Source: a virus. From it: a DNA stretch of 64,000 nt. The translations under genes and the position numbers were made by a program. Location of the stretch: IMG/VR virus record IMGVR_UViG_3300045988_155520, positions 96,001 through 160,000 of that record. One strand, given 5' to 3'. The notes beneath the pieces are model-generated. The model did not search any database and was not told where the DNA came from. It saw only the letters and a list, made by a program, of their open reading frames with translations. This document shows positions 311-38,526 of this stretch, one piece after another (position 1 is the first letter of the stretch; each line of letters begins with the position of its first letter).

Positions 311-1015
311 ATGAATTTAGATAATATCATAAAGGAAAGTATTAACGAATTTTTAATCAATGAGTTGTTTAATAAGAATAAATACTCCAATCTCGTTAAC
401 TCAGCTATAATGAATCTTGAGAGCTGTTTATTCTATCCTCAAATAGAAAATATTAATGCTACCAATGTCCCTCAAGAATATATTGAAATGGCTTCTATTT
501 TTAATGCTGGTCATACTTTAGCTAATCAACTAATGGCAACATTAAAACAAATTCAAGCATCTATTAATTATGGCAAAAATGTAAAGGAATCACATATTTT
601 TGAAAGTCCTTCTATTCCATCTTTAATTCCATCACAATTACGTAATTGGAATCCTGTAAGAGATTTTGCTGTCGGTGCTAAAAAGGGTATGAATGCCGTT
701 GAAAAAACTTTTGGTAAAAATGGTTCACAAAACAACCGTACTAATAGTAAAGATATGAAAACGCAGGATAATGCATATATGATGCGTTCTGCTAATTTGA
801 AAAACATCCTTGATTCTATTTTGTCAAAATTTAATGGTCAAGTTCAAGATTTTGCTAACCGCTTTACGTCAGATAAGAACTTACAGAAACAACTCGCTCG
901 ATATGCTACATATATTAATACTGAAATTAAAAGTTGTTATAAGTTAATTACAGTAGCCAATAACCTACGTTATAGTGGTATTGAAAATGCAAATTTCAAA
1001 CAAATCAGAAAATAA
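311..1015 (+). CDS. hypothetical protein with shared N-terminal helix (CTS-like family)
   Basis: 234-aa ORF with ATG start. N-terminus MNLDNIIKESINEFLINE. Followed by a hairpin terminator. Confidence 0.6.
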   Translation: MNLDNIIKESINEFLINELFNKNKYSNLVNSAIMNLESCLFYPQIENINATNVPQEYIEMASIFNAGHTLANQLMATLKQIQASINYGKNVKESHIFESPSIPSLIPSQLRNWNPVRDFAVGAKKGMNAVEKTFGKNGSQNNRTNSKDMKTQDNAYMMRSANLKNILDSILSKFNGQVQDFANRFTSDKNLQKQLARYATYINTEIKSCYKLITVANNLRYSGIENANFKQIRK

Positions 1016-1017
1016 AT

Positions 1018-1042
1018 AAAGCCTTGGATTAACCAAGGCTTT
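1018..1042. terminator. bidirectional hairpin between convergent genes
   Basis: AAAGCCTTGG-attaa-CCAAGGCTTT flanked by A and T runs. Confidence 0.65.
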
Positions 1043-1044
1043 AT

Positions 1045-1347
1045 TTATAATTCTAAATCATTTTGGGCCATATCAGTAGCTGCATCTATATTTGCCGAAC
1101 TACTACCTCCGCCTTCATAACTCTTTGCCTTTTCTTCCATATATTCATTATATTGATGTATATAATATTTTCTATCTCTGATAGGCATCTTATCTAATGT
1201 CGCAAAAGGTATACCGATATGTTTAAAACAACCAAATAATTCTTCTTTAAGATTTTTCTCGTAATTCGGAGATATTGAGGAAAACAGAATCGTCCCAGTT
1301 AAGAAAGGTCTCAAATGAGCCACCTCCCATTGACTCTGGTCTTTCAA
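1045..1347 (-). CDS. hypothetical protein, start uncertain
   Basis: Track ORF starts at TTG and overlaps the upstream gene by about 100 nt. The only internal ATG gives a 48-aa product (MPIRDRKYYIHQYNEY...). Confidence 0.3.
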   Translation of the reverse strand: MKDQSQWEVAHLRPFLTGTILFSSISPNYEKNLKEELFGCFKHIGIPFATLDKMPIRDRKYYIHQYNEYMEEKAKSYEGGGSSSANIDAATDMAQNDLEL

Positions 1348-2611
1348 CAGTAATGTTAAAGTTCATACCAGGCGTGTTATCGTTAATATATCTTCTCAAC
1401 ATCAATGAATCACGTGCAGGCATTGTATTGATGAACTTATTAATATACTTTCTATCTGTATTTCCGTCAATAGACACAACTTGTAACTGAAGAATATTTG
1501 TAATCATTCGTGTAAACGGTTTATCACTCTTCTTCTTCAAACGTTCTGTCCAACGTCTAAGTAATTTAACGGTCTTATCAACATCATTTTTCTCTTGAGT
1601 TGTAATTAACTCATCGGTAGATGCCATTCTCATCAGATTTCTACCCATCTCTGTCAATAGTTCTGCCTTTGTACCGTAGTTCTCTATTTTGGTAATGAGT
1701 GAAAGTTGTTTTTCTTCTTTTCTTGTGAGATACTTAAACTTTACCTTCTTCTTTGTAATTGGAAGAGTGTATTCAAAGTGTCCGTTTTCGTCAGATACAA
1801 GTTTAAACTCCTTTGGTTTAATAGTTGTTAAGTCAACTATTGTTTCAATTCTTTCACCTGTTTCTGGGTCTGCAACTACAATAGGAAACTCTGGTCCGTA
1901 ACTTGTTGCACGTAACCATACCATGATAGCATCCACATCACCACTAACTAAAGAGTCAGCATCAATACCACTATTCATTATCTTATGTTTTAAAAGATAA
2001 TCAATGACTAATCCGTCTTCATAAAGATTTGGTGAAGTAATGAAGTTCTCATCATAAGCGGTTAAATAACCTACTGGGATTCTATCCAGCTTGTCAGGAT
2101 AACATTCTCCGTTACTTGGCAATTGAATGATATCATATTGTACCTCTGGGTCAACATTGTTGTAAAGTTTATCATTCTGTGTTTTTACAGCTGTTGGTAC
2201 ACTATCCATGTTATCTGAACTCAAGTCTATATAATCGTCTTCATCTTCATCATCACTAATGTCGTCCATATATTCATCTTTAATGCTATGTTCTCTATAA
2301 GTATCACTACTAACTTTTTGAGTAGTTTTATCCTCATGTTTAAGTATTGAAAATACATCATAGTCATCGAATAAGTCGTCATTTGTTTTATCTTTTTTTA
2401 CTGTTTGATTAAGATTGATATTTACGTCTGCTTCTGGGTCAATCTTTTTAATATGGTCTTGAACCTCTTTTTGCGCTTTCTTAATGCGTTTAACAGATTC
2501 CTCTTTACCTCTTTCCTTAGCCTGTTGTATACTATTTTCTAACATTTGGTTATTAGCTTGAAGAATCTTTATTTCTTTAAGTTGTTCCTCACTTAGTTTT
2601 TTCTTTGACAT
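1247..2611 (-). CDS. baseplate hub-like protein (T4 gp26-family-like motif), coiled-coil/acidic N-terminal half
   Basis: Track ORF begins at TTG (2629). The first ATG (MSKKKLSEEQ) is at 2611, 1 nt after the upstream stop. Motif IQLPSNGECYPD..IPVGYLTAYDENFITSP..DAIMVWLRATSYGPEF resembles the T4 baseplate hub family from memory. Confidence 0.45.
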   Translation of the reverse strand: MSKKKLSEEQLKEIKILQANNQMLENSIQQAKERGKEESVKRIKKAQKEVQDHIKKIDPEADVNINLNQTVKKDKTNDDLFDDYDVFSILKHEDKTTQKVSSDTYREHSIKDEYMDDISDDEDEDDYIDLSSDNMDSVPTAVKTQNDKLYNNVDPEVQYDIIQLPSNGECYPDKLDRIPVGYLTAYDENFITSPNLYEDGLVIDYLLKHKIMNSGIDADSLVSGDVDAIMVWLRATSYGPEFPIVVADPETGERIETIVDLTTIKPKEFKLVSDENGHFEYTLPITKKKVKFKYLTRKEEKQLSLITKIENYGTKAELLTEMGRNLMRMASTDELITTQEKNDVDKTVKLLRRWTERLKKKSDKPFTRMITNILQLQVVSIDGNTDRKYINKFINTMPARDSLMLRRYINDNTPGMNFNITVERPESMGGGSFETFLNWDDSVFLNISELREKS

Positions 2612-2612
2612 A

Positions 2613-3218
2613 TTATATGAATTTATCAATTAAATTTATTTTTTCCACGAGAATAATATACTCTCCGACTTTTACTCTTTCTATAATTTTACAATTAACC
2701 AACTCTGCATAAATATCCTTATTAGCATTATTTTTAAAGCATATTTTTACATTTCTCTTTGGTTCATTCTGTAATACCCAATCTTCTCCATATGACTCAT
2801 ATGTATGTATTTCGTCATGTCCTCTATTCCATACACCAAACTCTGTTTCAAATTCTTCGTCAGAAGAGTTAAAATCCAGTCTAAAACGAGTAATAAACAT
2901 TTCTTGTTGAGAGAAATACGTAATTAGATTGTCTACAGTTTCTGGATTATTGTCCATATCATATAATAAACCTTGACACTGGGCATAACTAATTTTATCT
3001 TCTTTATAAGGTGATTTTTGACCCATCATATAAGTGTTACCATTGAATCCACTATGTGACCCAGTACTATCACTCATTGTTTCATAAATTATATCTTTGT
3101 ATTTCTCGTACTCGCTTACAAGTTTGTTCGTGTAGTCATTATCTTTATAGTAATTATTATCCACACTAAAAGAATCATCATTGTAATCAAGGTACGGCAT
3201 ATAAAACGTAACATTCAT
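2613..3218 (-). CDS. hypothetical protein (tail/baseplate operon)
   Basis: 201-aa ORF. Its ATG overlaps the stop of the upstream gene (ATGA at 3215-3218). Confidence 0.65.
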   Translation of the reverse strand: MNVTFYMPYLDYNDDSFSVDNNYYKDNDYTNKLVSEYEKYKDIIYETMSDSTGSHSGFNGNTYMMGQKSPYKEDKISYAQCQGLLYDMDNNPETVDNLITYFSQQEMFITRFRLDFNSSDEEFETEFGVWNRGHDEIHTYESYGEDWVLQNEPKRNVKICFKNNANKDIYAELVNCKIIERVKVGEYIILVEKINLIDKFI

Positions 3219-3721
3219 CGAATTTTATTTACATGTCTTTTATTCTTATTTTCTTCAAGGCGTATTTTTTGTCCTTGTATTTTGAGTCTACTTTTGAGTG
3301 TTTTCATGACTTCTTCAGGTCGTTTTCTAATATCACTCTCCCATATTCTCAAAAGAGGTATACCATGCATTAAAGCCCACTCATTTTTCTTTTTATCCAC
3401 CCATAAATCATGCTTCTGTGTTGGTGTCAATTTTTTACCTTCATAAATCTCTGGATTGACGTGATAATAATCACCATCGACTTCGATTAGTAGATTATGG
3501 TCTGGTAGATAAAAATCATAACTCCTTTGTATGTCTTTTGCTTCAAACTGCCACTGATATTTGATTTTAAGCTTCTTTAGAAATTCTGTTTCAAAATATT
3601 TTTCTAATTTACTTGTACCAAATTTAGGATGAGTTCTTAATGGTTTCCCATTAGATTTTCTCATCCTTGTTTTGGTTTTTTTTCGACTCTTATTATCTGT
3701 CTTTCTAATTGGTTGTTTCAT
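3215..3721 (-). CDS. Vsr/DUF559-like PD-(D/E)XK endonuclease (possible homing endonuclease)
   Basis: Basic N-terminus, then YDFYLPDHNLLIEVDGDYYH, the D..E.D/K core typical of the Vsr-like restriction endonuclease fold. First ATG at 3721 (the track start at 3730 is TTG). Confidence 0.55.
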   Translation of the reverse strand: MKQPIRKTDNKSRKKTKTRMRKSNGKPLRTHPKFGTSKLEKYFETEFLKKLKIKYQWQFEAKDIQRSYDFYLPDHNLLIEVDGDYYHVNPEIYEGKKLTPTQKHDLWVDKKKNEWALMHGIPLLRIWESDIRKRPEEVMKTLKSRLKIQGQKIRLEENKNKRHVNKIR

Positions 3722-3723
3722 TT

Positions 3724-4425
3724 TTACCAATATATTCTTGTCTTGAATGGGTCTTGGACATCTTTAGCTGAGATAGAAATATTATCTGAACGTTTGTTAT
3801 TACCAAACAAATCCAAATTAGATGACATCTTATTAATTTCTAATACTGGTGCTTTATATTCTAACTTTTCATAACCTATAGTAATATTAAACTCTCGTTC
3901 TTTAGTACTATCTGCTGTACATTTATTACCATAATAATTGGTAATTTTACACCCTGTATAGTGTTCTATATAGGCAAGTGAACCTCGTTTATCATACCAT
4001 TCTATATCAAAATCAAATGGCGTATTAATATATTTTTCTATTTCACGTCCAAGTATTTCAATATAACCATTTTTACGTTTAACATAATCACTCACACCTA
4101 AATGTAGATGTTTAAATATCGTATCAGCTTCAATATCTTTTATATAGTCAGAATCTATTTTGATTGTATTAGGAAACTTGACTTGATATGCATTAGACAT
4201 AATTTTTTCAGAAGATATATCACGCACAAATTCTTTATCTTTCCATGTTGAAAGTCTATTTAAAATTTCAATTTCCTTACGCAACATTTCTATTTGATGT
4301 TCAATTTCAGAACAGTCCTCTCTATCTGCACCACGCAAAAGCATATCCATTCTGGTCTTATTGTACATCTTTAAACTATTTTCTTTAATATTCATTTCTT
4401 TTTTTAATTCGTCAGCTGTAAACAT
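3724..4425 (-). CDS. hypothetical tail-associated protein
   Basis: 233-aa ORF immediately downstream of the tube gene in the same transcription direction. Confidence 0.6.
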   Translation of the reverse strand: MFTADELKKEMNIKENSLKMYNKTRMDMLLRGADREDCSEIEHQIEMLRKEIEILNRLSTWKDKEFVRDISSEKIMSNAYQVKFPNTIKIDSDYIKDIEADTIFKHLHLGVSDYVKRKNGYIEILGREIEKYINTPFDFDIEWYDKRGSLAYIEHYTGCKITNYYGNKCTADSTKEREFNITIGYEKLEYKAPVLEINKMSSNLDLFGNNKRSDNISISAKDVQDPFKTRIYW

Positions 4426-4487
4426 AACAATATATTTTATATAAAATATAGCAAAAAATACGATTATGTCAACTATAAAAATGATAA

Positions 4488-4525
4488 AAGAGTTTGATTA
4501 GATTAAAAAACTATATCAAACTCTT
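4488..4525 (-). terminator. hairpin terminator after the tail tube gene
   Basis: AAGAGTTTGAT-16 nt-ATCAAACTCTT, followed by a T-rich tail on the minus strand. Confidence 0.55.
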
Positions 4526-4534
4526 AAATTTCTT

Positions 4535-5023
4535 TTAGTATGCGAGAATTGCGTAATCAAATCTTAATGTCATTGAAATATCCGCAAGGTCATCCTGACT
4601 GTAATCCAAATCACCAAAATCGCAATCTGTTACCATAGTGTTTTTCAGAATCCACTTAGATACAACAACACCAGTCGGGTCAAGCATCTCTAACTCTACA
4701 TCACGTTTATAACCTGCTGCATAGCCCTGTCGTCCACTAACTGACTCAGAGTGCAAACGAACCCACTCCATTACAGCCTGTGAAGCTGACGGACCAATAG
4801 GGTCACGTAATTTTACCTGCATGTTATCCCATGTGTAATGTCCGATTACCCATGTTGATGTGTTGAGGAACTGAATTTCTTTCTCATTCTGCTTAATTGA
4901 AGGACGTTTCGCAGAAGCAATCCACCACTCTTGTATACCTAAATCTGCAGGAAATCTAAGCAACCATCGGTTTTTTCTTAATGGCTCATAATTAAGAGGC
5001 ATTTTAAGCAATAAATCACTCAT
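4535..5023 (-). CDS. tail tube protein (T4 gp19-like)
   Basis: 162 aa. N-terminal NRWLLRF and C-terminal LDYSQDDLADISMTLRFDYAIL parallel gp19 NLFQVEI and LDWDSNNEIQTFEVTLALDYWE. Near the sheath gene. Confidence 0.75.
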   Translation of the reverse strand: MSDLLLKMPLNYEPLRKNRWLLRFPADLGIQEWWIASAKRPSIKQNEKEIQFLNTSTWVIGHYTWDNMQVKLRDPIGPSASQAVMEWVRLHSESVSGRQGYAAGYKRDVELEMLDPTGVVVSKWILKNTMVTDCDFGDLDYSQDDLADISMTLRFDYAILAY

Positions 5024-5099
5024 CGAAATATAAATTAATAATATTATTATTTATTTTTTTAATATAAATATTATGATTCGTGTTTTTTAACTAAAATAA

Positions 5100-5131
5100 C
5101 TTGTGATATATTTCTAAAATAATTATTTTTG
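5100..5131 (+). promoter_or_regulatory. Bacteroidota-type promoter (CTTG-N20-TATTTTTG-CA)
   Basis: -7 box at 5124-5131 and a -33-like CTTG at 5100-5103, with exactly 20 nt between them. 25 nt upstream of the GTG start at 5157. Confidence 0.55.
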
Positions 5132-5156
5132 CATATATTTTATAAAAACAAGAATA

Positions 5157-7061
5157 GTGGATAGAGAAGAATTTATAAAAAGGTCGAAATTAGTATGGGG
5201 TGATAATATGTTTGATTATCGAGATGTCGTATATGTTAACACGTCTACTCCTGTTGTCCTATGGTATAATGGTGTTAAGTTTACTCAGCGACCTAAACAT
5301 CATTTAGCACATAGGAAACCTCTTTGTATGTCTGAAAAAAAGAAACATACAAGGGAGGAACTTATTGATAAGTTTAATAAAGTCCATAATTCCAAATACA
5401 CTTATGGTGAGTTTGTGTATAAAAATGCAAAAGAGAAGAATATACCCGTTTACTGTCATAATAAAGATAAATATGGTAATGAACATGGTATATGGTATAC
5501 TAATGCGACAAATCATCTCTCTGGATATGGTTGTCCGAAATGTAAATCTGATAAACTTTCTTCTACGTTCTCATCCAATAAAGAAGAATTTATAAGAAAG
5601 GCTAAACTTATACATGGAAATAAGTATGATTACTCTAAAATTATCTATATAAACAATTCTACTCCAGTTGAAATAGTTTGTCCTCAACATGGTTCTTTTA
5701 ATCAACTCCCTCATAATCATTTACAAGGCAAAGGTTGTCCTAAATGTATAGAAAGTAAACTTGAGGAAACTGTTAGAGCATTCTTAGAAGAGAACTCTAT
5801 AGAATTTAAGCAATATTATCATACTAATTGGTTAAAGCGTCAATCTTTGGATTTCTTTTTACCCCAATACAATTGTGCCATAGAATGTCAGGGCGAACAA
5901 CATTATAAAGAAGGATATTTTGGTGTAACATTAGAGAGTATTCAGGCATTAGATAAGACAAAATACTTGTTGTGTAAGAAGAATAAAGTATACTTATACT
6001 ATTTTGCTTCCGAAAAGTATAATATGGATGTATATACGAATATATCAGAACTATTTAATGATATTACTGGTAATTGTGTTTTCAAAGATAAAAATTTAAA
6101 CATTGTTAAGAATTTTCTTGCTACATTAAAGTGTAACTTCACTTATTCAATCAATAAAATTCATCATTCAGATGATTTTATAACCATACAGGATAGATTC
6201 TATTCTGAGGAAAATAAATTGATGATAATCTATGTGAATAGTTATGACCACCGTAAACGTTTTGCAAAATATAATTATAATGAGGGTATCTCACAAGACT
6301 ATTTTATAAATGAATCAAAGAAATACGAAAAAGACGGAATAAAATGTATATGGATAAAAGATTATGAGCTAAATGATAGTAGTACTTTAAAAGATGATAA
6401 TGGAAAATATCATTATGATTATCATCGTAAATGGGAAGTAATAAAATCTTACATTAAATATAGTGTTAATGAATGTCCTAATACATTATATGCACGTGAT
6501 TGTGAAGTACATGAAGTAAGTAATCAAGAACTAAAAGTATTCTTAGAAAAGAACTCATTACTTGGTTATAAATCGTCATCGGTGAACCTTGGATTATATT
6601 TGAAACGTGATAAAGGCACGCTTAAAAAAGGAACACTTGTAATGGTTTATACCTTTGGTGTTAATTACTTTAGTAGTACATCTGATAAACAGAATGTAGA
6701 AGTTATACGGGCTTCCACACTTATTGATTATCACATTAATGGTGGCGCAAGTAAACTAATGAAACACTTCTTTAAAAATTATTCAGTAATAAAAGTCAAA
6801 AATAAATTAATTAATACTGATTCTATCATTTATTATGTTGATGCCGACCATAATAATGGAAGTACGTTAGATTGTTTAGGATTTTCTCTTGTTTCGTGGA
6901 AAAGTGGATTTGTATATGTTAATTCAAATAAAATAACATCCCAAATGAGGAACCCATCAAAGTATAAAGAAATGCAAGAATCTTTGATGTCACATAAGTT
7001 TTTTGTTTCCCCTACAGCTGGCACCAAAGTCTATAAATTAATAAAAGCAGAAGATGTTTAA
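5157..7061 (+). CDS. homing-endonuclease-like multidomain protein (3 Zn-ribbon-type repeats + PD-(D/E)XK core + conserved C-terminal module)
   Basis: Repeats of the form EEFIxKAxxIHGNKYDYSxIxYxNxxTPVEIVCPxHGxFxQxPxxHLxGxGCPKC. Core is LDFFLPQYNCAIECQGEQH. Paralog of 58077-59789. Transcribed opposite to the flanking sheath and tube genes. Confidence 0.6.
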   Translation: MDREEFIKRSKLVWGDNMFDYRDVVYVNTSTPVVLWYNGVKFTQRPKHHLAHRKPLCMSEKKKHTREELIDKFNKVHNSKYTYGEFVYKNAKEKNIPVYCHNKDKYGNEHGIWYTNATNHLSGYGCPKCKSDKLSSTFSSNKEEFIRKAKLIHGNKYDYSKIIYINNSTPVEIVCPQHGSFNQLPHNHLQGKGCPKCIESKLEETVRAFLEENSIEFKQYYHTNWLKRQSLDFFLPQYNCAIECQGEQHYKEGYFGVTLESIQALDKTKYLLCKKNKVYLYYFASEKYNMDVYTNISELFNDITGNCVFKDKNLNIVKNFLATLKCNFTYSINKIHHSDDFITIQDRFYSEENKLMIIYVNSYDHRKRFAKYNYNEGISQDYFINESKKYEKDGIKCIWIKDYELNDSSTLKDDNGKYHYDYHRKWEVIKSYIKYSVNECPNTLYARDCEVHEVSNQELKVFLEKNSLLGYKSSSVNLGLYLKRDKGTLKKGTLVMVYTFGVNYFSSTSDKQNVEVIRASTLIDYHINGGASKLMKHFFKNYSVIKVKNKLINTDSIIYYVDADHNNGSTLDCLGFSLVSWKSGFVYVNSNKITSQMRNPSKYKEMQESLMSHKFFVSPTAGTKVYKLIKAEDV

Positions 7062-7075
7062 TTGTCTTCTGCTTT
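7044..7075. terminator. bidirectional hairpin between convergent genes
   Basis: AAAGCAGAAGA-10 nt-TCTTCTGCTTT, overlapping the stop codon at 7059-7061. Confidence 0.6.
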
Positions 7076-7082
7076 CTTTATT

Positions 7083-7433
7083 TTAGCCAACACTTGCATT
7101 ATCTTTTTCAGAAACTGCCTTGTCACACATCAACCATATTTTCTTATAGAATTGGTATAATTCAGAATCTACATTTTCAGCATACTCTTGTAAGCCTTCT
7201 AATGCTACTTCACGTATTCTTGCGATTCTGTCATCTTGTTGTGACAAATCTTGTCCATTCATATCATCATTTTGTGCATTTCCCTCTTCTCCTTCAAATT
7301 CTTCCTGAGCTGGGATTTCTTCATCATTAAACTGTTCTTCGTCACTAAAATCAAATGCTTCCTGAAGTATTTTAGCTGACTTATTCAAGTCACGTAATGT
7401 TCTTTCTAAAAAAGTTGTTTTATTTTTTTTCAT
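7083..7433 (-). CDS. highly acidic small protein downstream of the sheath gene
   Basis: The first ATG (MKKNKTTFLERT) is at 7433. The track start at 7532 would overlap the sheath gene and its terminator. D/E/Q-rich centre. Confidence 0.55.
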   Translation of the reverse strand: MKKNKTTFLERTLRDLNKSAKILQEAFDFSDEEQFNDEEIPAQEEFEGEEGNAQNDDMNGQDLSQQDDRIARIREVALEGLQEYAENVDSELYQFYKKIWLMCDKAVSEKDNASVG

Positions 7434-7463
7434 ATTAAAATGCAGTTTATTATAAATATCAAT

Positions 7464-7500
7464 AAAAAATAAAAAAGGAGAACCAATACGATTCTCCTTC
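7464..7500 (-). terminator. intrinsic terminator after the tail sheath gene
   Basis: Minus strand reads AAGGAGAA-9 nt-TTCTCCTT followed by a T run (stems at 7475-7482 and 7492-7499). Confidence 0.65.
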
Positions 7501-7518
7501 TCTATTAATATAATATGT

Positions 7519-10500
7519 TTAGATATCATCAAATGATGCGCCCTCTGGAGTGAGGATAAAGTCTATTGTGATATACTCTAATGCACCATAAGGTTTGAAG
7601 AATATCTTAGCAGGCAACTCTCTTCTTTCACGTGATTCTACGGTATCATTTACCTCGATACGATAATCAGAAATACCTCTGTTGTTTCTAATATTATCCA
7701 GAATTGGAGTTACTGTTGACAAGAAAGTATTCTTACTTGTTGTATCATTAGGGTCGAAAATAAGACCTATACATGATATAGAGATAAGCTTTCTTAATCT
7801 TAACAATAAACGTCTAACAGCGATTCTGTTGAGCTGAGATTCACGCTTCTGAAGGTTCTTCTGACCCCAAATCTTAACACCGTCTGTTGCGAATGTCTTA
7901 ACAGGGTTAATTCTACCTTCGTACAGTTTATCCTCATCACCATTCTTAGTAATAGTTCTTGCTCTTACACATTCAACATTACCACGGTTAATACCTGCTG
8001 GTGCAAACCAAGGCTGATACTGATTATCTGTCTGAGCGAAGTTTCTTACAGCGTCTTTTGTTGCAGGGAGGTATATGTACTGATTATTATCTTGGTCAAA
8101 GTACTTAATCCAAGGATAATATGTACAAGCATAATTTGAGTCAATCTCCATATCCTCAAGATTATATACTGCTTCCTCTGCGCTGTACATTTCGTCTGTA
8201 AAGTCACTTGCGCCAGATGGTTTATCAGGAGTTGTAATCACATAGATTGAGTCAGCTCTCTCTTCCTCAATCATATCAATTGCTTCCTCTACTAATAACT
8301 TCTGATTAACATAGTCAATACCAGGAGTTGCAAATATATTGATATCTGTTTCCTCTGGATTAGCAAACTGTCTAATTGCAGATAAGTAAGCATACCAGTC
8401 TGATGTTATACCATTCTGATTCAATTTCAGTGACTTAGGATTCTGTATCTTGTCAAATGCATAACCTGCGCCACTATTTGCATCATAAGTACCTTTATAT
8501 CTTGATAATTTAAACTCATTGGTATTAGTTCTCTTATCACGATAAACATCCCATCCGTCGAAACCACCATAGAAATAAGTGGTGAACTTTCTCATATTAG
8601 CATTTTCATAAATTGAACCTGCCATTTGTTCCTCTGTACCGATGACTGGTGTCTCAGGTAAGTTTCTTGTTCTTGCATTTGTGCTAACAGCATCAAACTT
8701 ATAACCTTTTTCACCATCTACAGTTACATTAACAACGTGTTCTTTATCATCGAATGCTTTTGAATTGATACGAGAGTCGAGGTGGAAACCCTTTGTTAAG
8801 AGTGCAGGTACACCATCAACATAAGCTGCATTACCTTTAAATGTAAACATGTCAATATCTACACCTACCCAGCTTGAAAGACCGAAGTACTGTTTTCTAT
8901 TCTTAACTTCCTCATCATAGTCAAGGTTGTATCTGAGTTTAGGCTGCTCTATGTCATCATGAGCGTCACCATCTACAATTTGTACACCTGAGTAAGCTTG
9001 CTGAGGATACCCAAGGAAACCAGCAGGTACTGAAGTTCTTGCTGCTGTTGTCTCATTTACCTCAATAGTCACATATTTAGACTTTGTTTCATAAACACCA
9101 TCAAATGAACCAATTCTGTAAGCAACGTAGTCGCTCTGACCAGGAATCATAGAACATCTACCAAAGCGTTCGTAAACTCGTGGTGCTTCATCGGTATCAT
9201 TAATATCTCTAATTACAACATCGAATCGACCCTCGTCTGGACGGATATTCTCAATAGAAACTTTAACTTCGTTGTTAGAACTGTCACCGTCAGAGATAGT
9301 GTGGAATCTAAACAACTTGTTTACTTCCATTTTGTTGTAATCACCTTTCAAGTTAGAAACAATCCAAGGTGTTGATGCATAACGATAAGCTGACTTATAA
9401 TCATTCATATCGCATGCTGCAAATGTTATATCATCATTGGCTGTATTCATACGCCAATACATACCATCTGAACTATTCTTTACAAGTGTTCTCTTTGTTA
9501 CCTGAGTTGTTGCACCCTCTTCTGGATTTCTTAACTTATCGTACATAGGTGCTGTGTTTAAATCTCCACCTTTCTCACCCTTTGCTGTACGTTTTGCTTT
9601 CCAATCTTTCTCATAAAGTTCAACTGACTCAGCTAAATTGTAAGCATAGAAGTAATGTCTCTTACCATCAGTACCAGTATATTGTGCTACAGTGTAAATC
9701 TGTCCAGGTTCAACAATTACTTTTACAGGCTCTTGCATTGCTGCAGCATATGCAGCTTTACCAGCTTCTGTAGTTTTGTCGAATTTAGTTTCATCTGGTT
9801 TACCTACAATTCTATTATCAGGAATACTTGCAATGGCAACTGAAAGTCCATCTTTTTCAAGTTTCTTTGAGGCTAACTGTTCATATGTAATAGGCTGACC
9901 AGTTATATAGTTATAAGGATGTGCATGGATAGCCTGTCTTGTGCCATCTTTAGCTGCAACGCTTGCTCTCTTATCAGCCAAATATCTCAAACCAACATGT
10001 CGTCTTGTCAGACCCTCCTCCTGAAGTTCGATTAAACCAGATACCGCCTCAAGACCATTATAATCGTTGGTGTAATATACCTGATAAGCCTCAAGAGAGT
10101 TTGAAATAGCACTGATAGTACCCTCTACAATACCCTGCTGTAAAGATACATCGTAAAGTGTCTCTACAAATACAGGTGCATCACCGTCTTGTGCCTTGTT
10201 GCCTAATACGTTCAGAATATACTCTTTATCAGAAGGATTCAATGAAACTGGATATTCAAAATATCCGTCAGGATGTTTACCTTTCTCAACTTCTCCCCAT
10301 AAAGTAGTCAATTGTTCCTCTGTATGTGCGCCTAAGAAACCTGCTATTTTAAAACGTCCATAATTTAAGGTGTTAACTTGGAAACTTGAAGTATCTGGAC
10401 TTAAACCAAAACCTGAACATTCGTTACCAAGTGAATAAAGAGGCACATATGGTAATATTCTAAGTGCATCCATATTATACTTTCTTGGTGCTTTACAATC

Positions 10501-14398: not shown

Positions 14399-15109
14399 TT
14401 AACTATAATATTTATCAGCTACTTCTTCATTAAAACCATCATCTAAAATTACCATATGAGGTTCTCCGTCTCTTATCGTCATTCCCCAATTTGCTAATCT
14501 ACAGAAATCACCTACTGGTGGTCTATAATTCATTATATAATCATACAATTCATTAAGGATATAAGAATTTTCTTCATCATAATCTAACATATCCCTTAAA
14601 TTATCATCTGAAAGTATCTGACGTGTTTTGAATCTGGATGGGTTTGCAATTCTTCCAGCTGACAAAATAAACGCTTGAATTTGTTTCCATGTAAAACCTA
14701 TTACTTTTTTAAAGTCTTGTGCTTTTGCAGGTAGCACATACTCACTTACAATCCACTGAAATGAAGGTTCTTTTTCTCCATTATATGAATACATTGTTGT
14801 GTGTTCTCCATCATACATGAATATTTTAGGAAAAAGACTATAATTGTTTTTATAATAATCATTTAATGTTGAACATTCTGCCTCGTTCTGCGCAATACCT
14901 TTAACATTCTTAGCCAACTTCAACACACGCTCGTCATCCAATTGGAAAACCATTCTACTTGAACCACTACCAACTGGATTACCTAAAAAACTTTTGCAAT
15001 ATGCTACTTTTTTGTTGTAGCTAAGTCCATTGAGTTTATCTAAACTAAATCCACTCTTAACGGCTTCAAAAAGTTTATTTTGGCTTTCGTTTATAATAAT
15101 ATTTTTCAT
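14399..15109 (-). CDS. protein-kinase-like fold protein with CTS-like N-terminus
   Basis: G-loop GSGSSRMVF, VLKLAK lysine, QNEAE, hinge WIVSEYV, catalytic-loop-like GDFCRLANWG, DFG-like ILDDGF. N-terminus is MKNIIINESQNKLFEAV. Confidence 0.55.
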   Translation of the reverse strand: MKNIIINESQNKLFEAVKSGFSLDKLNGLSYNKKVAYCKSFLGNPVGSGSSRMVFQLDDERVLKLAKNVKGIAQNEAECSTLNDYYKNNYSLFPKIFMYDGEHTTMYSYNGEKEPSFQWIVSEYVLPAKAQDFKKVIGFTWKQIQAFILSAGRIANPSRFKTRQILSDDNLRDMLDYDEENSYILNELYDYIMNYRPPVGDFCRLANWGMTIRDGEPHMVILDDGFNEEVADKYYS

Positions 15110-18745: not shown

Positions 18746-19153
18746 CTATTTGTATATTTGGTTGATTGCGTAGCTCTGATTACTTCTATTGTTCATTGCA
18801 CTATAGTTGATTCTCTTAATTAAATCACCAATAGTCATTTTGTCACCATATTTCTGTGCAAACGATTGTAATTGTTTAATCATCTCTTGTTTCTTGTCGT
18901 ATGCACCCTGCTCTTTATAATTTGTTTTTGCTGCCTGCCAACGTTTACCCAAATTATAGTTTACTTCTGTATCATTTGGTGCGTTATGTCTTTGTGATGC
19001 ATTTCCTACACCTCTACCGAAAAACGCATTAGCACCAGCCTTTACATTATCCCAAACGCCTTCATTTGTCATATTCTCTTGTAAAGCGGTTCTTACTGAA
19101 TTTTCTATAATATTATGTAAATCAGCCTCTGTTAGTCTTATAACTTGTTTCAT
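18746..19153 (-). CDS. hypothetical protein, CTS-like N-terminal family (paralog of 38101-38526)
   Basis: N-terminus MKQVIRLTEADLHNIIENSVRTALQEN versus MKKTIKLTEEELHQLIENTVYDILNEG. Confidence 0.65.
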   Translation of the reverse strand: MKQVIRLTEADLHNIIENSVRTALQENMTNEGVWDNVKAGANAFFGRGVGNASQRHNAPNDTEVNYNLGKRWQAAKTNYKEQGAYDKKQEMIKQLQSFAQKYGDKMTIGDLIKRINYSAMNNRSNQSYAINQIYK

Positions 19154-28460: not shown

Positions 28461-28484
28461 CTTGTAATAACTTTTTAATTTTTA

Positions 28485-30539: not shown

Positions 30540-30582
30540 ATTATTTTTATATTAGTTATTCTTTATATTCTTTTAAATAAAT

Positions 30583-30969: not shown

Positions 30970-30986
30970 AAAAGCCTATGACAAAT

Positions 30987-32942: not shown

Positions 32943-32962
32943 TACATACCTTATTTCACAAT

Positions 32963-32976
32963 AATAAATATTTATT
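32963..32976. promoter_or_regulatory. perfect palindrome AATAAATATTTATT in a divergent intergenic spacer
   Basis: Overlaps a minus-strand TATAAATA (plus-strand TATTTATA at 32973-32980), 30 nt upstream of the ATG at 32942. Confidence 0.3.
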
Positions 32977-32997
32977 TATAATAAATTGTATATTCAA

Positions 32998-33276
32998 ATG
33001 AAGATAGTTAAAATAAATGAATCTCAGTTTGAAAAGTTATTTGAAACAAGTTCATTCGTTCAAACTGCTGGTGAAAGTAATTTAAGTCTGCCTGGTGCTG
33101 AACAAGCAGCCACTTCACCTAATGCAGCAATCATACATGATATAGACGGAAATGAAATAAATCAAGGACAAACTGATGATGAGTTAGCGCAACCGATAAC
33201 AGGTAAAAAGATTTCTAACACAATGTCAAGTTCTCAAAAATTTGGCTATGTTGGAAGTAATGGAAGGGGATTATAA
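32998..33276 (+). CDS. small hypothetical protein with CTS-like N-terminus
   Basis: The first ATG gives MKIVKINESQFEKLFETS. The track start at 32986 is TTG. Confidence 0.5.
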   Translation: MKIVKINESQFEKLFETSSFVQTAGESNLSLPGAEQAATSPNAAIIHDIDGNEINQGQTDDELAQPITGKKISNTMSSSQKFGYVGSNGRGL

Positions 33277-33278
33277 GT

Positions 33279-33836
33279 ATGCCTATTTTTATTTATGAAG
33301 ACAGACAGGAAGTACAAAATAAAGTAAGTGTTCTGCCTGCTGATTTTATGAAAGAGAGATTTAAAACAGCAGCTCTTAATAAAGATTATCTTGAAACTGT
33401 TCCTGGTGGTAAGGTCTTGAAAGGACAAATTTCTAAGACCCAATATAACACTAAAGGTTCTACATCAGATAGTAAGAATGGTAAAGAAAAGAAATCATCT
33501 GTTGGTGTTATTCAACATAGCCGTTTAAAGGGTATTGTTCATGCTATGGAACAGGTACCACGTAATTCAAAAAGTTTTGAATTATATGGCGGTGAGAAAG
33601 GTCTTGAGATATACAGGAATTTACTTAGTAAAAACAGGTCCGTTCCATCGGTTAATTCTGTTAAGCAAGTTAAACCTGCGTCTGCATCATCTTCAACTAA
33701 GCCATCTTCTGTTAATATAAAATCTGATACTACTCCAGATGGAGGAAGTGTTTCTTTTTTAAAGAACGAATCACGTAAAACAATTTTTATTAATGGAAAA
33801 CAATTAAATATATTAAAAGAAAATAGAAATGTATAA
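33279..33836 (+). CDS. hypothetical S/K-rich protein
   Basis: 185-aa ORF. Confidence 0.5.
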   Translation: MPIFIYEDRQEVQNKVSVLPADFMKERFKTAALNKDYLETVPGGKVLKGQISKTQYNTKGSTSDSKNGKEKKSSVGVIQHSRLKGIVHAMEQVPRNSKSFELYGGEKGLEIYRNLLSKNRSVPSVNSVKQVKPASASSSTKPSSVNIKSDTTPDGGSVSFLKNESRKTIFINGKQLNILKENRNV

Positions 33837-34005
33837 AAATGGTCAAACGTGTCTTGAGAAATTTGGTCTTGAGGCAAGAAAGGTTCATTTGCAAAGGAAT
33901 GATTGGGGTAATCCAGTTATGCCTTCTACAAAGAATAAAATAGAATACACTAAAGTTTTAGTAGATGCAGAATATGCAATACAAACCGACTTTAAAGTAG
34001 ATTAA
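33829..34005 (+). CDS. 58-aa ORF below the track cutoff (MYKNGQTCLEKFGLEARK...)
   Basis: Its ATG overlaps the end of 33279-33836. It shares the NGQTCLEK.G.E motif with the N-terminus of 34048-34461. Confidence 0.35.
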   Translation: MYKNGQTCLEKFGLEARKVHLQRNDWGNPVMPSTKNKIEYTKVLVDAEYAIQTDFKVD

Positions 34006-34047
34006 CTATTTATAAAGAAAATAATGATATTAAATTTTAAATAACAT

Positions 34048-34461
34048 ATGGCTACAACAGTTCAAAATGGACAAACATGTCTTGAAAAAAGAGGTATAGA
34101 AGAAAGACATAAAGAAATTACACGAAGTGATTATAACATTGAAGACCAGTACGGTCCAACACATAAAGATGCCTTAAGTGATGGCGACCCTCAAGGTAAA
34201 GGTACAGGTCATGGTGGTCATACTCATTATTTACCAGACTGTACAAAACCTACTGGTACTATAGACTATAGCAATTTTGATACAGACCATGGTGGTGGTC
34301 AATATGACATCGAAGGACGTAACAATATCAGCGGTCGTAAGAGAGCACTTGCTATCTCAATGTATAACAAAGAAAATATGTATGGTCCAACATTGGTTGA
34401 TACTTCTATTAATAGAAGCGATGGACAATATTTTGTAGGTCAGACTTTAAAACATTCGTAA
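34048..34461 (+). CDS. hypothetical G/H/D-rich protein
   Basis: 137-aa ORF. Confidence 0.5.
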   Translation: MATTVQNGQTCLEKRGIEERHKEITRSDYNIEDQYGPTHKDALSDGDPQGKGTGHGGHTHYLPDCTKPTGTIDYSNFDTDHGGGQYDIEGRNNISGRKRALAISMYNKENMYGPTLVDTSINRSDGQYFVGQTLKHS

Positions 34462-34464
34462 TAG

Positions 34465-35385
34465 ATGAATCTGAATTTATATGAAATATTGAAGAATGTG
34501 TTAAATGAGGGGGTTTCCACAAAGGCGGTTCGTAAGGTTTTAGATGGTTCTATTGATGGTGTAGATAGTAACGGAAAAGCTAAGAATGTAGATAAAAATG
34601 GCAACCTCTTCTATCACTATGTTCGTATAACATATGATGATACTTTAGATAATCCTCATTCTGATAAACTTCCAGAACCTGTAGGAAATAGACTTGGAGT
34701 CAGAATTATTCAACCTTATGCGTTGGGAGAATATATTTCAGTTAATTCTAAAACTGGTAAAAAGAAACGTAGAAAAGTTTTAAGAGCCTATCAAATAAGT
34801 CCAGAGAGTAGACGAGGAGGTCCACGTTGGGATTTATTCAGACTTGATAGAATTTTATCTTGGGAACCTATACTTTCTAAAACTTTCAGTTATCCTGCAG
34901 AGGGTTATAATGAAAATGGAGATAAAACTTTAAATAAGGTTGACGTACAAGTTAAATTTAGTAATTACGAACGAAATCCTGATGAATATACCCAAGCTAT
35001 CAATAGACCTGGTGCTATAAAACAACAGTCTCAAAGCGATATGCTTGCACCTAAAGTATCTAACGGTAATATAGGTCAGACAAATGTTTTGAATCAACGT
35101 AAAAGAGTTGCTGGTAAAACTTATAAGAATAGTAAACGTGATAACATGGTTGCTAAAAATATAGAACTTACTAAAACTCAAGATAGATTTGATAATTCTT
35201 TATGGGATAAAGCTAATTCTGAAAAGATGAAGCAAGATTATAACAATTGGAATAATAAGAATCAAAAAGTTAAATCTGGTCCAATTAAAAATAATGATGA
35301 GGAAGATATGGAAGCATGGCTTAACACACCTCATAATGATTTTGACAAAGATATTACTTCTTATAAAAAAAATGAATTTATATAA
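34465..35385 (+). CDS. hypothetical basic protein with CTS-like N-terminus
   Basis: 306 aa, N-terminus MNLNLYEILKNVLNEGVS. Confidence 0.55.
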   Translation: MNLNLYEILKNVLNEGVSTKAVRKVLDGSIDGVDSNGKAKNVDKNGNLFYHYVRITYDDTLDNPHSDKLPEPVGNRLGVRIIQPYALGEYISVNSKTGKKKRRKVLRAYQISPESRRGGPRWDLFRLDRILSWEPILSKTFSYPAEGYNENGDKTLNKVDVQVKFSNYERNPDEYTQAINRPGAIKQQSQSDMLAPKVSNGNIGQTNVLNQRKRVAGKTYKNSKRDNMVAKNIELTKTQDRFDNSLWDKANSEKMKQDYNNWNNKNQKVKSGPIKNNDEEDMEAWLNTPHNDFDKDITSYKKNEFI

Positions 35386-35396
35386 TATTACACATA

Positions 35397-36020
35397 ATGG
35401 ATGCAAGTAATTTAAAAAATGTTTTACAAAGAGCAAAACGTTTAACAGATATGGATGCAAGCGGACAAATCAATATGATTGCTGAAAATGCAAGAAATAG
35501 TGGTAAAATGAATTATAATGACACCGATGCAATTCCATCTGTTAATCAAACCAATTATCAGCCAGTTTATCAGAATTTCTCTGAGCCAAGAAGAAATTCA
35601 TCAATGCCAAAAGAAATATTGGAGTCTTTTAGAGATAACCCTATTAATGTTCCAGCTGGAGGTATGGGTGCTTCTTCTTCTGTTTTAGATGATTTGGGAA
35701 TAGTTACTGAAAATTTCCAACAGCCTGTTGTTCCTAAAGCACCTAAACGAGTTATTACTGAAAATAGCAATGTTCATCAACCTGTATATCAAGGTTCTTC
35801 TAACGTTGATTATTCACTTATCAAAGATATAGTTGAGAGTGCTGTGAAGAAATATATGGGTGCTTATATGAAAAAGATGATGAATGAAAATAAACAAAAT
35901 CTTTCATCAAATGATACTATAAAGGCAGTTCAATTTGGTGATAAATTTAGTTTTGTTACAGAGAGTGGTGATTTATATACAGCTTCTTTAGAATTTGTTA
36001 AAAATATAAAAAAGAAATAA
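35397..36020 (+). CDS. hypothetical protein
   Basis: 207-aa ORF followed by a terminator. Confidence 0.55.
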   Translation: MDASNLKNVLQRAKRLTDMDASGQINMIAENARNSGKMNYNDTDAIPSVNQTNYQPVYQNFSEPRRNSSMPKEILESFRDNPINVPAGGMGASSSVLDDLGIVTENFQQPVVPKAPKRVITENSNVHQPVYQGSSNVDYSLIKDIVESAVKKYMGAYMKKMMNENKQNLSSNDTIKAVQFGDKFSFVTESGDLYTASLEFVKNIKKK

Positions 36021-36047
36021 AGCGTAGGTCAATTCCTACGCTTTTTT
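36019..36047. terminator. bidirectional hairpin between convergent genes
   Basis: AAAGCGTAGG-tcaatt-CCTACGCTTT plus a T run. Confidence 0.7.
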
Positions 36048-36054
36048 ATTTTAT

Positions 36055-36777
36055 TTAAATCTTTCTATTTCTTAGAATTTTCTTGATAATTTCTTGAGTT
36101 TCATCATTAGGATTTTTATTTATCATTTCTTCTATTTCATTCTTAATAGATTTTTCACTACCATTTATTCCTAAAACTTTTAAAGCATCGTATATATCCT
36201 GTATTTGGTTTTGTTTCTTTTCTTCGTCTTCAGGTTTTATACCATCTTTAATTTCTGAATTTGCATTTGTGTTTTGATTAGTCTGGTTATTATTTCCAAA
36301 AACATCTCTCAAACTGCCTACTAAATCTTCATCTCTATCTTGATTTGAGTTGTTCATTCTACTATCATCTCGGTATTGATTTGAATCGTTTGTTCGGTCA
36401 TAACTTCTTTCTTGATTTGAGAAGTTATTATCACGATAAAATTGTTCTCTTCCCCTGAAATTACTATTTCTCTGACTCTGATATGCTCTTTCGAGTTCAT
36501 TTAAGCCACTATTCATCGCTTCTAAGACCTTATTTCCAATTTGACGACCAACTATACTCCTCATCTTTTTTACGACCGTTATAGCATTTTTTAAGTCCTC
36601 GATATCACTACCAAGTCTTCTTGACTCCATCATATGTCTCCATCCGTTTTTAAAAGCACCACCTAAACCTTTAAAAAATCCCTTTGTTGAACCATACACA
36701 CCTTCTTGTAAGGTTAAGTCATCTATATTTTCTTGAATTAATATATCTATTTGTTTTTTAGTAAATTTCTTTTCCAT
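36055..36777 (-). CDS. hypothetical protein with CTS-like N-terminus and N/Q/D/R-rich repeats
   Basis: N-terminus MEKKFTKKQIDILIQENIDDLTLQEGV. Degenerate repeats FSNQERSYDR / DSNQYRDDSR / NSNQDRDEDL. Confidence 0.55.
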   Translation of the reverse strand: MEKKFTKKQIDILIQENIDDLTLQEGVYGSTKGFFKGLGGAFKNGWRHMMESRRLGSDIEDLKNAITVVKKMRSIVGRQIGNKVLEAMNSGLNELERAYQSQRNSNFRGREQFYRDNNFSNQERSYDRTNDSNQYRDDSRMNNSNQDRDEDLVGSLRDVFGNNNQTNQNTNANSEIKDGIKPEDEEKKQNQIQDIYDALKVLGINGSEKSIKNEIEEMINKNPNDETQEIIKKILRNRKI

Positions 36778-36853
36778 TGAAAATTTGTTTTATAATAAAT
36801 ATATTGATAGCATCAATTATATTTTTATATTTTAGTTAAAAAAAATAAGTATA

Positions 36854-38086
36854 ATGGATAAAATTAAAATGCTTGTTATTCCAAGTGACCGTATGGGAGT
36901 TGGTAAGTTTAGGTCTGTAGACCCTCATGTTTATATAGCTGAACATTATGCAGATGAATTTGATATTGATATTTGTTATATCGACCAAATTCCTACTGAA
37001 AATACTAAAAACTTTTTTGCACAATATGACCTTGTACATATTCATAAACAGCTTGATAATGATATGCTTTTAATGAATATGCTTAAAGAATTATCTATAC
37101 CTGTTGTTTTAGATATAGATGATTATTTTCATTTGAGTGATTTTCATCCAATGGTAATTACCGCTCGAAAGGAAAAATGGCATGAAAAAATAATTAATCA
37201 TATCAGAAAGGCTGATTATGTAACAACAACAACGGATATTTATGCTAAGACGTTGAAGCAATATAATAAAGAAGTTTCAGTATTTCCTAATGCTATAAAT
37301 CCAGATGAAAAACAATATTCTTATCAAAAGAACGAAAGTGATAAAATTCGCTTTGGAATATTATGCGGTTCATCACATCTTCATGATATTCAACTTCTTA
37401 AGGGTATTTCAGAATGTGCAAGACCTGATAATAATGTTCAGTTAGTTCTTTGCGGTTTCGACACCAATGGAACAAGGACAATTTATGATGAAAAAACAGG
37501 TCAAGTATATAGAAGAAAAATTCTTCCACAAGAATCAATGTGGTTTGAGTATGAAAGAATTATAACCGATGATTATAAGTATTGTTCTCAAGAACATAAA
37601 AACTTTTTAATGAAATTTGTACCAGGAGTTGATGACCCATTTGATAATGAACCTTACAGACGTATGTGGACAAGGAATATTAACTCTTACGCTACTCATT
37701 ATCAGAACATTGACGTTTTATTAGCTCCGTTGAAAGATACTGAATTTAATAAAATGAAGTCCGAATTGAAAGAAATAGAATGCGGATTTACAAAAACAGC
37801 ATTAATTGCTGAAAATTTAGGACCATATACTATTAATTTAACTTCAATGATAGGTTTTGGTGGAACTGTGAATGAAAATGGTACAGCATTATTAGTAGAC
37901 CCAAGAAAAGACCATAAGGATTGGGTTAAATATATTAATAAGTTAGCTACCAATCCAGAAATGATTGAAAAATTGAAAGATAATATTCATTCACTTGTAG
38001 TTGATAAATATTCAATGGATAAGGTCTGTGAAGATAGAGTAAAATTTTATAAAGAAATAATGAAAAACAAAAAGAGAGATTCGTAA
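36854..38086 (+). CDS. glycosyltransferase-like protein (GT-B type, tentative)
   Basis: 410 aa. LLAPLKDTEFNKMKSELKEIECGFTKTALIAEN resembles the GT4 E..E/nucleotide-sugar motif region. Confidence 0.45.
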   Translation: MDKIKMLVIPSDRMGVGKFRSVDPHVYIAEHYADEFDIDICYIDQIPTENTKNFFAQYDLVHIHKQLDNDMLLMNMLKELSIPVVLDIDDYFHLSDFHPMVITARKEKWHEKIINHIRKADYVTTTTDIYAKTLKQYNKEVSVFPNAINPDEKQYSYQKNESDKIRFGILCGSSHLHDIQLLKGISECARPDNNVQLVLCGFDTNGTRTIYDEKTGQVYRRKILPQESMWFEYERIITDDYKYCSQEHKNFLMKFVPGVDDPFDNEPYRRMWTRNINSYATHYQNIDVLLAPLKDTEFNKMKSELKEIECGFTKTALIAENLGPYTINLTSMIGFGGTVNENGTALLVDPRKDHKDWVKYINKLATNPEMIEKLKDNIHSLVVDKYSMDKVCEDRVKFYKEIMKNKKRDS

Positions 38087-38099
38087 TCTCTCTTTTTTT
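38070..38099. terminator. bidirectional hairpin between convergent genes
   Basis: AAAGAGAGATT-cgt-AATCTCTCTTT plus a T run; overlaps the last codons of 36854-38086. Confidence 0.7.
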
Positions 38100-38100
38100 A

Positions 38101-38526
38101 TTATCGTAAATTTTTCTTTAAATTCTCTTTAATTATATTTGAAATTTGTTTGATAATTGCCTCGTCCATTGAGTGATAAGAGTTATAAATATCATCAATT
38201 TCCATTTTAGTTAAAGCACGTCCTAACTGTTTGGTTTTCTTATCAATTTCCTTATTTGCTTCACGTTCATGTTTATCAACAATAGAACTATTATCTCTAT
38301 TGGAATGAGTATTATTTTGATTTAAATATTCTCTACCTAAAAGTGCACCACCTAAAATAGTTCCACCAACTGCTGTTTGCAGTGCAAGTTTTCCAGTTTC
38401 TTTTCCAACTTTCTTTGCATTTTTCTTAAATTTATCCCATTTCTCACCTTCGTTGAGAATATCATAAACAGTATTTTCGATGAGCTGATGCAACTCTTCT
38501 TCTGTTAACTTAATAGTTTTTTTCAT
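38101..38526 (-). CDS. hypothetical protein, CTS-like N-terminal family (paralog of 18746-19153), one central hydrophobic G-rich segment
   Basis: N-terminus MKKTIKLTEEELHQLIENTVYDILNEG; central LALQTAVGGTILGGALLG. Confidence 0.65.
   Translation of the reverse strand: MKKTIKLTEEELHQLIENTVYDILNEGEKWDKFKKNAKKVGKETGKLALQTAVGGTILGGALLGREYLNQNNTHSNRDNSSIVDKHEREANKEIDKKTKQLGRALTKMEIDDIYNSYHSMDEAIIKQISNIIKENLKKNLR

Follow-up and report, generated by a model that had tools for sequence, protein, structure and literature searches.

A modular N-terminal peptide on otherwise unrelated proteins of uncultured T4-like phages, and its possible role in capsid targeting

Do several otherwise unrelated proteins encoded by one stretch of viral DNA share an N-terminal peptide, and could that peptide direct them into the phage head? 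The stretch (the window) comprises positions 96,001-160,000 (64,000 nt) of the IMG/VR record IMGVR_UViG_3300045988_155520, is part of the contig ERZ989715 k127_90752 (250,705 bp) from a human oral metagenome, and has a G+C content of 30%. An earlier note had proposed that at least seven of its proteins share an N-terminal helix with (L/I)xE motifs, possibly a capsid-targeting sequence. The internal proteins of T4 are diverse, their one common feature being a capsid-targeting sequence of 10 residues that loads them into the scaffolding core, and the prohead protease gp21 cuts after L/I-X-E (PMC3012670, PMC9026906).

The window encodes a distant T4-like myovirus, with sheath, tube and baseplate genes, a B-family DNA polymerase and an SNF2 helicase in addition to a major capsid protein (MCP) and a scaffold. 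A megablast comparison of 20 kb of the window with cultured phages revealed no close DNA-level relative, and the best MCP matches, Microcystis phage Mel-JY01 and Flavobacterium phage immuto, were 36-40% identical. Numbers with the prefix L denote IMG/VR or related loci, L001 being the locus that covers the DNA of this phage beyond the window end.

The shared element, referred to here as the tag, has the consensus MKKI(I/V)(R/K)LTESDLxRIVKRV(I)xE, or a longer form ending in DLHxIIExSVxxxLxE. As judged from the alignments, the tag is a modular element of ~22-26 residues, in which a short stretch of basic and hydrophobic residues, MKKI[IV][KR], is followed by L-T-E without variation and then by an amphipathic helix with (I/L/V)-x-E at its end. 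When the tag alignment was used for a word-seeded search, dozens of short proteins that share only MKKIVKLTESDLxRIVKRVIxE were obtained; the search returned only proteins of up to 74 aa, and modularity on longer proteins cannot be concluded from it alone. A degenerate DNA pattern for M-K-[KR]-I-[VI]-[KR]-L-T-E-x-D-L, in which positions 13 onward were unconstrained, matched at least 120 IMG/VR loci, versus 4 matches, each in a contig of a metagenome-assembled genome, in 596 Gb of bacterial and archaeal sequence.

In the 120 IMG/VR loci listed, 200 tags were detected with a profile, and 190 of them begin exactly at Met. The 164 unique tagged proteins of these loci are 65-496 aa long (median 140), and their C-terminal parts fell into 128 clusters, 107 of which are singletons. 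Over the 128 cluster representatives, the most conserved columns were L7 (100%), T8 (97%), E9 (100%), D11 (94%), L12 (99%), [IVL]20 (99%), and E22 (93%), and the conservation collapsed directly past E22. In an exhaustive HMMER search, 9,600 of 1.84 billion cluster representatives matched at E <= 1e-3, and 81 of these at E <= 1e-10, with the best E-values down to 3e-18. In 123 of the best 150 of these 9,600 matches, the top-scoring stretch starts within the first few residues. In addition, the codons differ at 28-34% of the identical residues among tags within one locus, and at 46% among the four tags of this phage, indicating that selection acts on the peptide.

Neither in the seven proteins nor in 110 tagged representatives is the tag covered by a Pfam or PHROGs family. 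The tag consensus, a 72-aa tagged protein and a three-tag protein gave no real match in tblastn searches of 50,697 cultured phage records; the head module of Flavobacterium phage immuto contains no tag, and the motif was not found in the searchable literature, nor under capsid targeting in metagenomes. On these comparisons, the tag is a large, undescribed, virus-only family that is essentially absent from cellular genomes. At the level of sequence, the comparisons establish a real, modular and virus-specific N-terminal element that is selected as a protein, is linked to the head module, and is accompanied by a prohead protease. The hosts of the tag-bearing phages are suggested to be Bacteroidota, because SprB repeats are present and Shine-Dalgarno sequences are absent.

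How far do the seven proteins of the window belong to this family? Their ORFs and N-termini are as the earlier note had given them, with identical translations, and they are listed here together with their tags.

18746-19153, minus strand: P1, 135 aa, canonical long-form tag, 56 bits
19076-19153, minus strand: tag of P1, MKQVIRLTEADLHNIIENSVRTALQE, with (L/I)xE sites ending at E9, E17, and E26
38101-38526, minus strand: P2, 141 aa, canonical long-form tag, 52 bits
38449-38526, minus strand: tag of P2, MKKTIKLTEEELHQLIENTVYDILNE
32998-33276, plus strand: P3, 92 aa, acidic, short or divergent tag MKIVKINESQFEKLFE (32998-33045), 11 bits
14399-15109, minus strand: P4, 236 aa, match to phrog_4301 (function unknown; E = 4.5e-16), short tag
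15065-15109, minus strand: short tag of P4, MKNIIINESQNKLFE, followed by A16
311-1015, plus strand: P5, membership unsupported, 8.9 and 5.9 bits, rated within the decoy range
34465-35385, plus strand: P6, membership unsupported, profile score in the noise
36055-36777, minus strand: P7, membership unsupported, profile score in the noise, lineage-specific

The profile scores were compared with those of 494 internal windows used as decoys, for which the maximum was 6.5 bits with a broad tag profile and 6.4 bits with a variant-inclusive one. With the broad profile, P1, P2, and two head-module proteins of L001 scored 41-56 bits, and P3-P7 were within the decoy range. With the variant-inclusive profile, P4 (14 bits) and P3 rose above the decoy maximum, and P5-P7 stayed in the noise. 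Thus, the shared element proposed for the seven proteins is real, but the size and limits given for the family were wrong: two members are strong, two are short or divergent, and three are unsupported. The sole match in an all-against-all BLASTP comparison of the seven was that between residues 1-41 of P1 and P2. The proteins therefore have nothing in common past the N-terminus, as had been claimed, except that P1 and P2 are paralogous beyond the bare helix. Among Pfam and PHROGs, no family matched any of the seven N-termini, and the body of P4 was the only part to be matched.

The (L/I)xE sites, which had been taken as the family motif, are weak evidence for membership. At least two such sites occur in the first 30 residues of 13 of the 60 window proteins (22%), versus 4% of internal windows (p = 6e-6), so that the expected N-terminal enrichment is present; however, the same holds for 14% of the N-termini both in T4 and in Staphylococcus phage K, which is AT-rich, does not belong to the T4-like phages and serves as a control. 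Counts of (L/I)xE sites were dropped as a membership criterion after the phage K control.

For P1, the part after the tag is small and basic (pI 9.7), and KLTExDLHNIIExSVRxALQE is kept in five orthologues. The AlphaFold model has a helix at residues 9-25, with low confidence (pLDDT 52). For P2, the part after the tag is likewise small and basic (pI 9.6). Its gene is absent in the more distant relatives L018-L021, and since both P2 and P7 are missing from the relatives at ~63% identity, they are lineage-specific additions.

For P3, the longest ORF opens with TTG at 32986, and the ATG at 32998 is a plausible start. In the relatives at ~63% identity, the match to the P3 orthologues is restricted to residues 1-28 (L019 and L020), and the L018 orthologue reads MMKTIKLNEGQLQLFAKLIES.

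For P4, 88 homologues were found, 73 of which are full-length, and the matching region is annotated as a Ser/Thr protein kinase in two phage records (H26 and H30). In the full-length homologues, [ILV]-x-E8 is present in ~69 of 73, [LIVM]-x-E15 in 71 of 73, and A16 in 67 of 73; the length of the N-terminal peptide varies, and the conserved body begins directly past the E-A junction. Some homologues carry long-form tags (VILKESQLRKMVSNVVRKALNE followed by A, and MNHNKVILKESQLRKMVSNVVRKALNE followed by AMDDTF), which link the canonical tag with the short form. L-x-E-A before PLPDDWD is kept even in homologues at 30% identity, from the Xanthomonas phages Xoo-sp13 and XacN1 and the Alishewanella phage Slicko01. 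A virion proteomics study of XacN1, in which gel bands only were analysed, does not mention the P4 homologue, ORF170. The AlphaFold model of P4 is of low confidence (pLDDT 36). Conservation in their own homologues supports the tags of P3 and P4 independently of the profile scores.

For P5 and P7, searches for divergent orthologues in IMG/VR yielded only relatives of at least 90% and of 97% identity, respectively. For P6, the N-terminal h-LNE is kept in two distant orthologues, which there read MALNLCEILQKVLNES in L018 and ...VLDRLLNED in L019. By these sequence scores, P5, P6, and P7 are indistinguishable from chance.

If the tag directs proteins into the head, the phage would be expected to encode a prohead assembly system of the T4 type. 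The genes concerned lie at the end of the window and just past it, where a profile seeded with P1 and P2 also drew in two more N-termini.

59877-61901, minus strand: MCP, gp23-like, 674 aa, match to PF07068 and to gp23 in PDB (E = 4e-29)
62031-63440, minus strand: scaffold, gp22-like, gene directly upstream of the MCP gene, homologous to related head-module scaffolds
L001 6946-7095: 49-aa acidic tagged protein, MTKRIVKLTEDDLQSLVKNVVKEVIEND..., between portal and protease
L001 7135-7815: 226-aa tagged protein, MKKIVLTENQLSNLSKHILQERTFED..., 3 nt after the protease gene
L001 7819-8535: S77 prohead protease, match to PHROG 207 (E = 1e-41) and to T4 gp21 (PDB 5JBL; E = 1.6e-14)

The gp21-like prohead protease that the earlier note had asked for is present as a Peptidase_S77 (PF03420) gene ~1.5 kb past the window end. 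The motifs around its catalytic His (ELNHP) and Ser (GVSSRG) are the same as in T4 gp21, and from its sequence the protease looks active. The matches of the MCP bear out the earlier statement that the capsid is gp23-like. The MCP contains a conserved L-I-S-E-A at residues 57-61, and its clade keeps L-I-x-E-(A/T) twelve residues before the VVFPI(I/V)RR core; this motif likely represents the end of a delta domain. The scaffold has a helical N-terminus, a long acidic middle and many (L/I)xE sites, and is presumed to be the docking partner of the tag. Derivation of the tag from the N-terminus of the scaffold by copying was also considered: ENxVxDILxE is common to P2 and the scaffold by eye, no profile was significant, and the resemblance is a lead only.

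Tagged genes recur at two places in the head module. One lies directly downstream of the protease gene in L001, L160, L092, L091, L013 (two in a row), L203, and L229, and another between the portal and protease genes in L001, L013/L014, L086, L092, L134, and L137. The proteins encoded past the protease gene have no homology to each other except for the tag. Tags lie within 4 kb of the protease gene in all five of the closest protease-centred loci. Among 92 large ORFs near tags, 53 were matched by Pfam, and the head-related families among the 25 listed are Portal_T4, Gp23, and Terminase_6N, all of which are T4-type.

A promoter-like TATTTAT lies 23-47 nt upstream of the genes for P1, P3, P4, P5, P7, the scaffold, the protease, and h309. 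In the window, TATTTAT(A/T) is found at this distance from the genes at 311, 4535, 14399, 17997, 18746, 28485, 30987, 32998, 34048, 36055, 50257, 55044, 56955, and 62031. It also occurs at about -24 of tagged genes in the unrelated loci L010 and L012, and before the L001 protease and h309 genes. The shared TATTTAT is consistent with, and no proof of, co-expression.

Several further features of these head genes were observed. Only residues 72-110 and 380-648 of the MCP could be aligned to T4 gp23, indicating an insertion of ~270 residues, which is conserved in the relatives L013 and L086. The S77 protease has 568-597 aa in L013 (13251-14957) and L137 (11217-13010), versus ~240 aa, indicating fusion to an extra domain. 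The T4-type portal gene (L001 2791-5448, ~7 kb past the window end) encodes 885 aa with an intein (PF14890); the portals of relatives have 677-692 aa without an intein, and that of L137 has 1096 aa. A TnpB/OrfB_IS605-type gene (63533-64000, minus strand, continuing into L001 8700-9908; HTH_OrfB_IS605, OrfB_IS605, and Cas12f1-like_TNB) sits in the middle of the head module, between the protease and scaffold genes.

The reading that we prefer, with belief and doubt about evenly balanced, is that the tag is a capsid-targeting and protease-processing signal like that of T4. It is favoured because the logic is the same as in T4, the genomic neighbours are apt, and the conserved part ends at a gp21-type site. 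By analogy with T4, we infer docking, cleavage, packaging and ejection of the tagged proteins. Through the tag, the protein would dock in the scaffolding core as the prohead assembles, the gp21-like S77 protease would cut past Glu in the (L/I)xE sites of the tag, and the mature protein would be freed inside the head, where it would be kept or from which it would be ejected with the DNA. P1 and P2 would then be small basic cargo comparable to the internal proteins of T4; P4, which may be kinase-like, would be an enzyme cargo like T4 Alt; and the 49-aa acidic protein of L001 would be a gp67-like core protein. Taken together, the protease, the MCP site, the end of the tag, the head-module loci and the basic P1 and P2 make capsid targeting plausible as an inference, and the idea now appears better supported than the earlier note could know. 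More tentatively, the tag might be the general capsid-loading and processing code of a large uncultured T4-like clade, and the ~9,600 clusters would then be packaged, probably injected effectors.

The likeness to T4 extends to several features. As for IPI, IPII, IPIII, and Alt, a short N-terminal peptide is the sole thing common to unrelated proteins of a T4-type phage, and its (L/I)-x-E ending recalls the T4 capsid-targeting sequence. Like T4, the phage encodes a protease of the S77 family, a scaffold resembling gp22 and a capsid protein resembling gp23, and the tagged proteins include small basic ones (P1 and P2), as do the T4 internal proteins. In contrast, the tag has 22-26 residues versus 10 for the capsid-targeting sequence of T4 (PMC9026906), its family is vastly larger at 9,600 clusters, and it is found on proteins of up to ~500 aa, which are known here from their sequences alone.

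The 49-aa tagged protein and its relatives of 70-124 aa, encoded between portal and protease, recall T4 gp67 and gp68. These 49-124-aa proteins resemble gp67 (80 aa) in gene position, in size and in their acidic tail, and (L/I)xE sites lie in a helix at their N-terminus, as in gp67; unlike gp67, they have a conserved NNYEPF motif of their own, and neither a PHROG or Pfam match nor homology to gp67 was detected.

A short conserved module also sends variable cargo into a shell in the case of the encapsulin cargo-loading peptides and the MuF-domain polymorphic toxins. These differ from the tag in location (a C-terminal peptide or a large MuF domain), in sequence and in the shell, and have no link to a protease. 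The protease motif of the phiKZ-like phages has the form S/A/G-x-E. In the phiKZ-like phages 201phi2-1 and SPN3US, many head and ejection proteins carry propeptides that are removed past Glu by the gp21-related proteases gp175 and gp245 (PMC9026906). Unlike the tag, those propeptides are not one conserved element; they belong to another lineage, and the protease motif differs from that of T4 (PMC9026906).

Several observations weigh against a capsid-targeting function. Unlike the T4 sequence, the tag also occurs internally and in multiple copies: the rest of the best 150 database matches carry at least two copies, and a single protein can have as many as 4-5 tags. A profile comparison of the tag with the scaffold revealed no significant similarity. 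Of 80 protease-centred loci from across the wider diversity of T4-like phages, only 11 contain the tag, indicating that it belongs to a sub-clade. The (L/I)xE site itself is low in information and common in amphipathic helices. The 50,697 records of cultured phages include none with the tag, and no region of T4 was among the matches of the tag searches, none of which was a comparison aimed at the T4 ip genes. The AlphaFold models of P1 and P4 are of low confidence. The 110 tagged representatives include two PG_binding_1 proteins, one LysM protein and a few of endolysin type, as well as two hydrolases, and tags are dense in small-gene arrays, with 6 of ~40 genes in L010 and 7 of ~31 in L012; a share of 15-20% of the small genes in such loci is high for proteins packaged in the capsid.

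Of the alternatives, the one that survives best, although we regard it as unlikely, is that the tag is a docking peptide for another phage or host machine, such as an Hsp70- or ClpB-like chaperone or unfoldase, an oligomerisation handle, or a degron, and that its place in the head module is incidental. Genes for such partners are frequent near tags, with ClpB-like AAA+ proteins accounting for 6 and Hsp70/DnaK for 3 of the 92 large ORFs (L024-L143), but no Hsp70 or ClpB gene was seen in the window or its flanks. Basic and hydrophobic stretches of the tag, such as KKIVKL and RIVKRVI, resemble Hsp70-binding peptides. The abundance of tags in small-gene arrays without visible head genes (L010 and L012) and the internal and multi-copy tags would be consistent with such docking, and the N-terminus of T4 gp23 has been reported to send fusion proteins to GroEL (PMC3012670). 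However, this explanation accounts neither for the stop of the conservation at (I/L/V)-x-E or at the E-A junction, nor for the recurrent place of tagged genes past the protease gene in divergent lineages.

As an explanation of the whole likeness, chance combined with composition (an AT-rich genome with N-termini rich in K, N, I, E, and L, and no shared element) is highly improbable. The proportion of phage K N-termini with repeated (L/I)xE sites and the scores of P5, P6, and P7 within the decoy range are what chance would give, whereas the 52-56 bits of P1 and P2, the thousands of database matches with E down to 3e-18, and the conservation of the P4 peptide over 73 homologues are not. Chance and composition thus hold for P5-P7 only, and for these three they are the probable explanation.

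It can scarcely be the case that the shared element is a DNA-level cassette of promoter, leader and first codons, spread by recombination in the manner of T4-type mobile regulatory cassettes, with a functionless peptide: TATTTAT does precede many tagged genes of different phages by much the same distance, but 28-46% of codons differ at identical residues, internal tags occur without a promoter, and amino-acid columns are 93-100% conserved over 128 unrelated clusters. The cassette was rejected as a sole explanation on the synonymous variation; recombination may help the tag to spread, but cannot explain the selection on the peptide.

The host defences first encounter a phage through its packaged and injected proteins, and outside a few model phages, such cargo is not recognisable from sequence. 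If the tag is a capsid-targeting signal, it would be a searchable mark by which candidate injected effectors could be picked out by the thousand in uncultured phages, from the oral cavity as well as elsewhere, and would define a polymorphic cargo system far larger than the internal proteins of the T-even phages. In that case, cargo could be identified purely from sequence, and the tag could serve to bring foreign proteins into capsids. Should the link to the capsid prove wrong, a 22-residue virus-only peptide on ~9,600 unrelated clusters still represents undescribed phage biology that needs explanation.

Proteins with two to five copies of the tag, including internal ones, are P0112, P0148, P0131, P0192, and P0113. 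Three of these (P0113, P0131, and P0148) share a domain, ASKFQR(V/I)(N/H)A...GVYKPKGGPM...YGI(S/G)G..(F/M)..(S/T)YKF(D/N)E, to which a tag is N-terminal in all three, and a second tag is C-terminal in P0113 and P0131. The multi-copy proteins suggest polyprotein-like architectures.

Further observations concern neighbouring genes. Two DUF723 paralogues (5157-7061, plus strand, and 58077-59825, minus strand), whose N-terminal halves are 38-43% identical, adjoin the tail tube gene and the MCP gene, respectively, and a DUF723-like gene interrupts the DNA polymerase region in L009. MCP-adjacent proteins of L062 (9016-10137 and 10654-11727) and L064 (9089-10591) have a separate N-terminal motif (MIKQTWNIDEDERNRILNLHETAT, MIKQTWNISEDEKNRILNLHESAT, and MKKLYFLDEQEKKRILNLHTEATK). 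One untagged gene lies two genes from P4:

12895-13848, minus strand: ART-PolyVal-like protein, weak Pfam match

This ADP-ribosyltransferase-like protein recalls T4 Alt. In addition, the adjacent genes at 33829-34005 and 34048-34461 (both plus strand) have a different N-terminal motif in common, NGQTCLEK(F/R)G(L/I)E, which is also present in the relatives L018-L020, indicating a second small N-terminal family.

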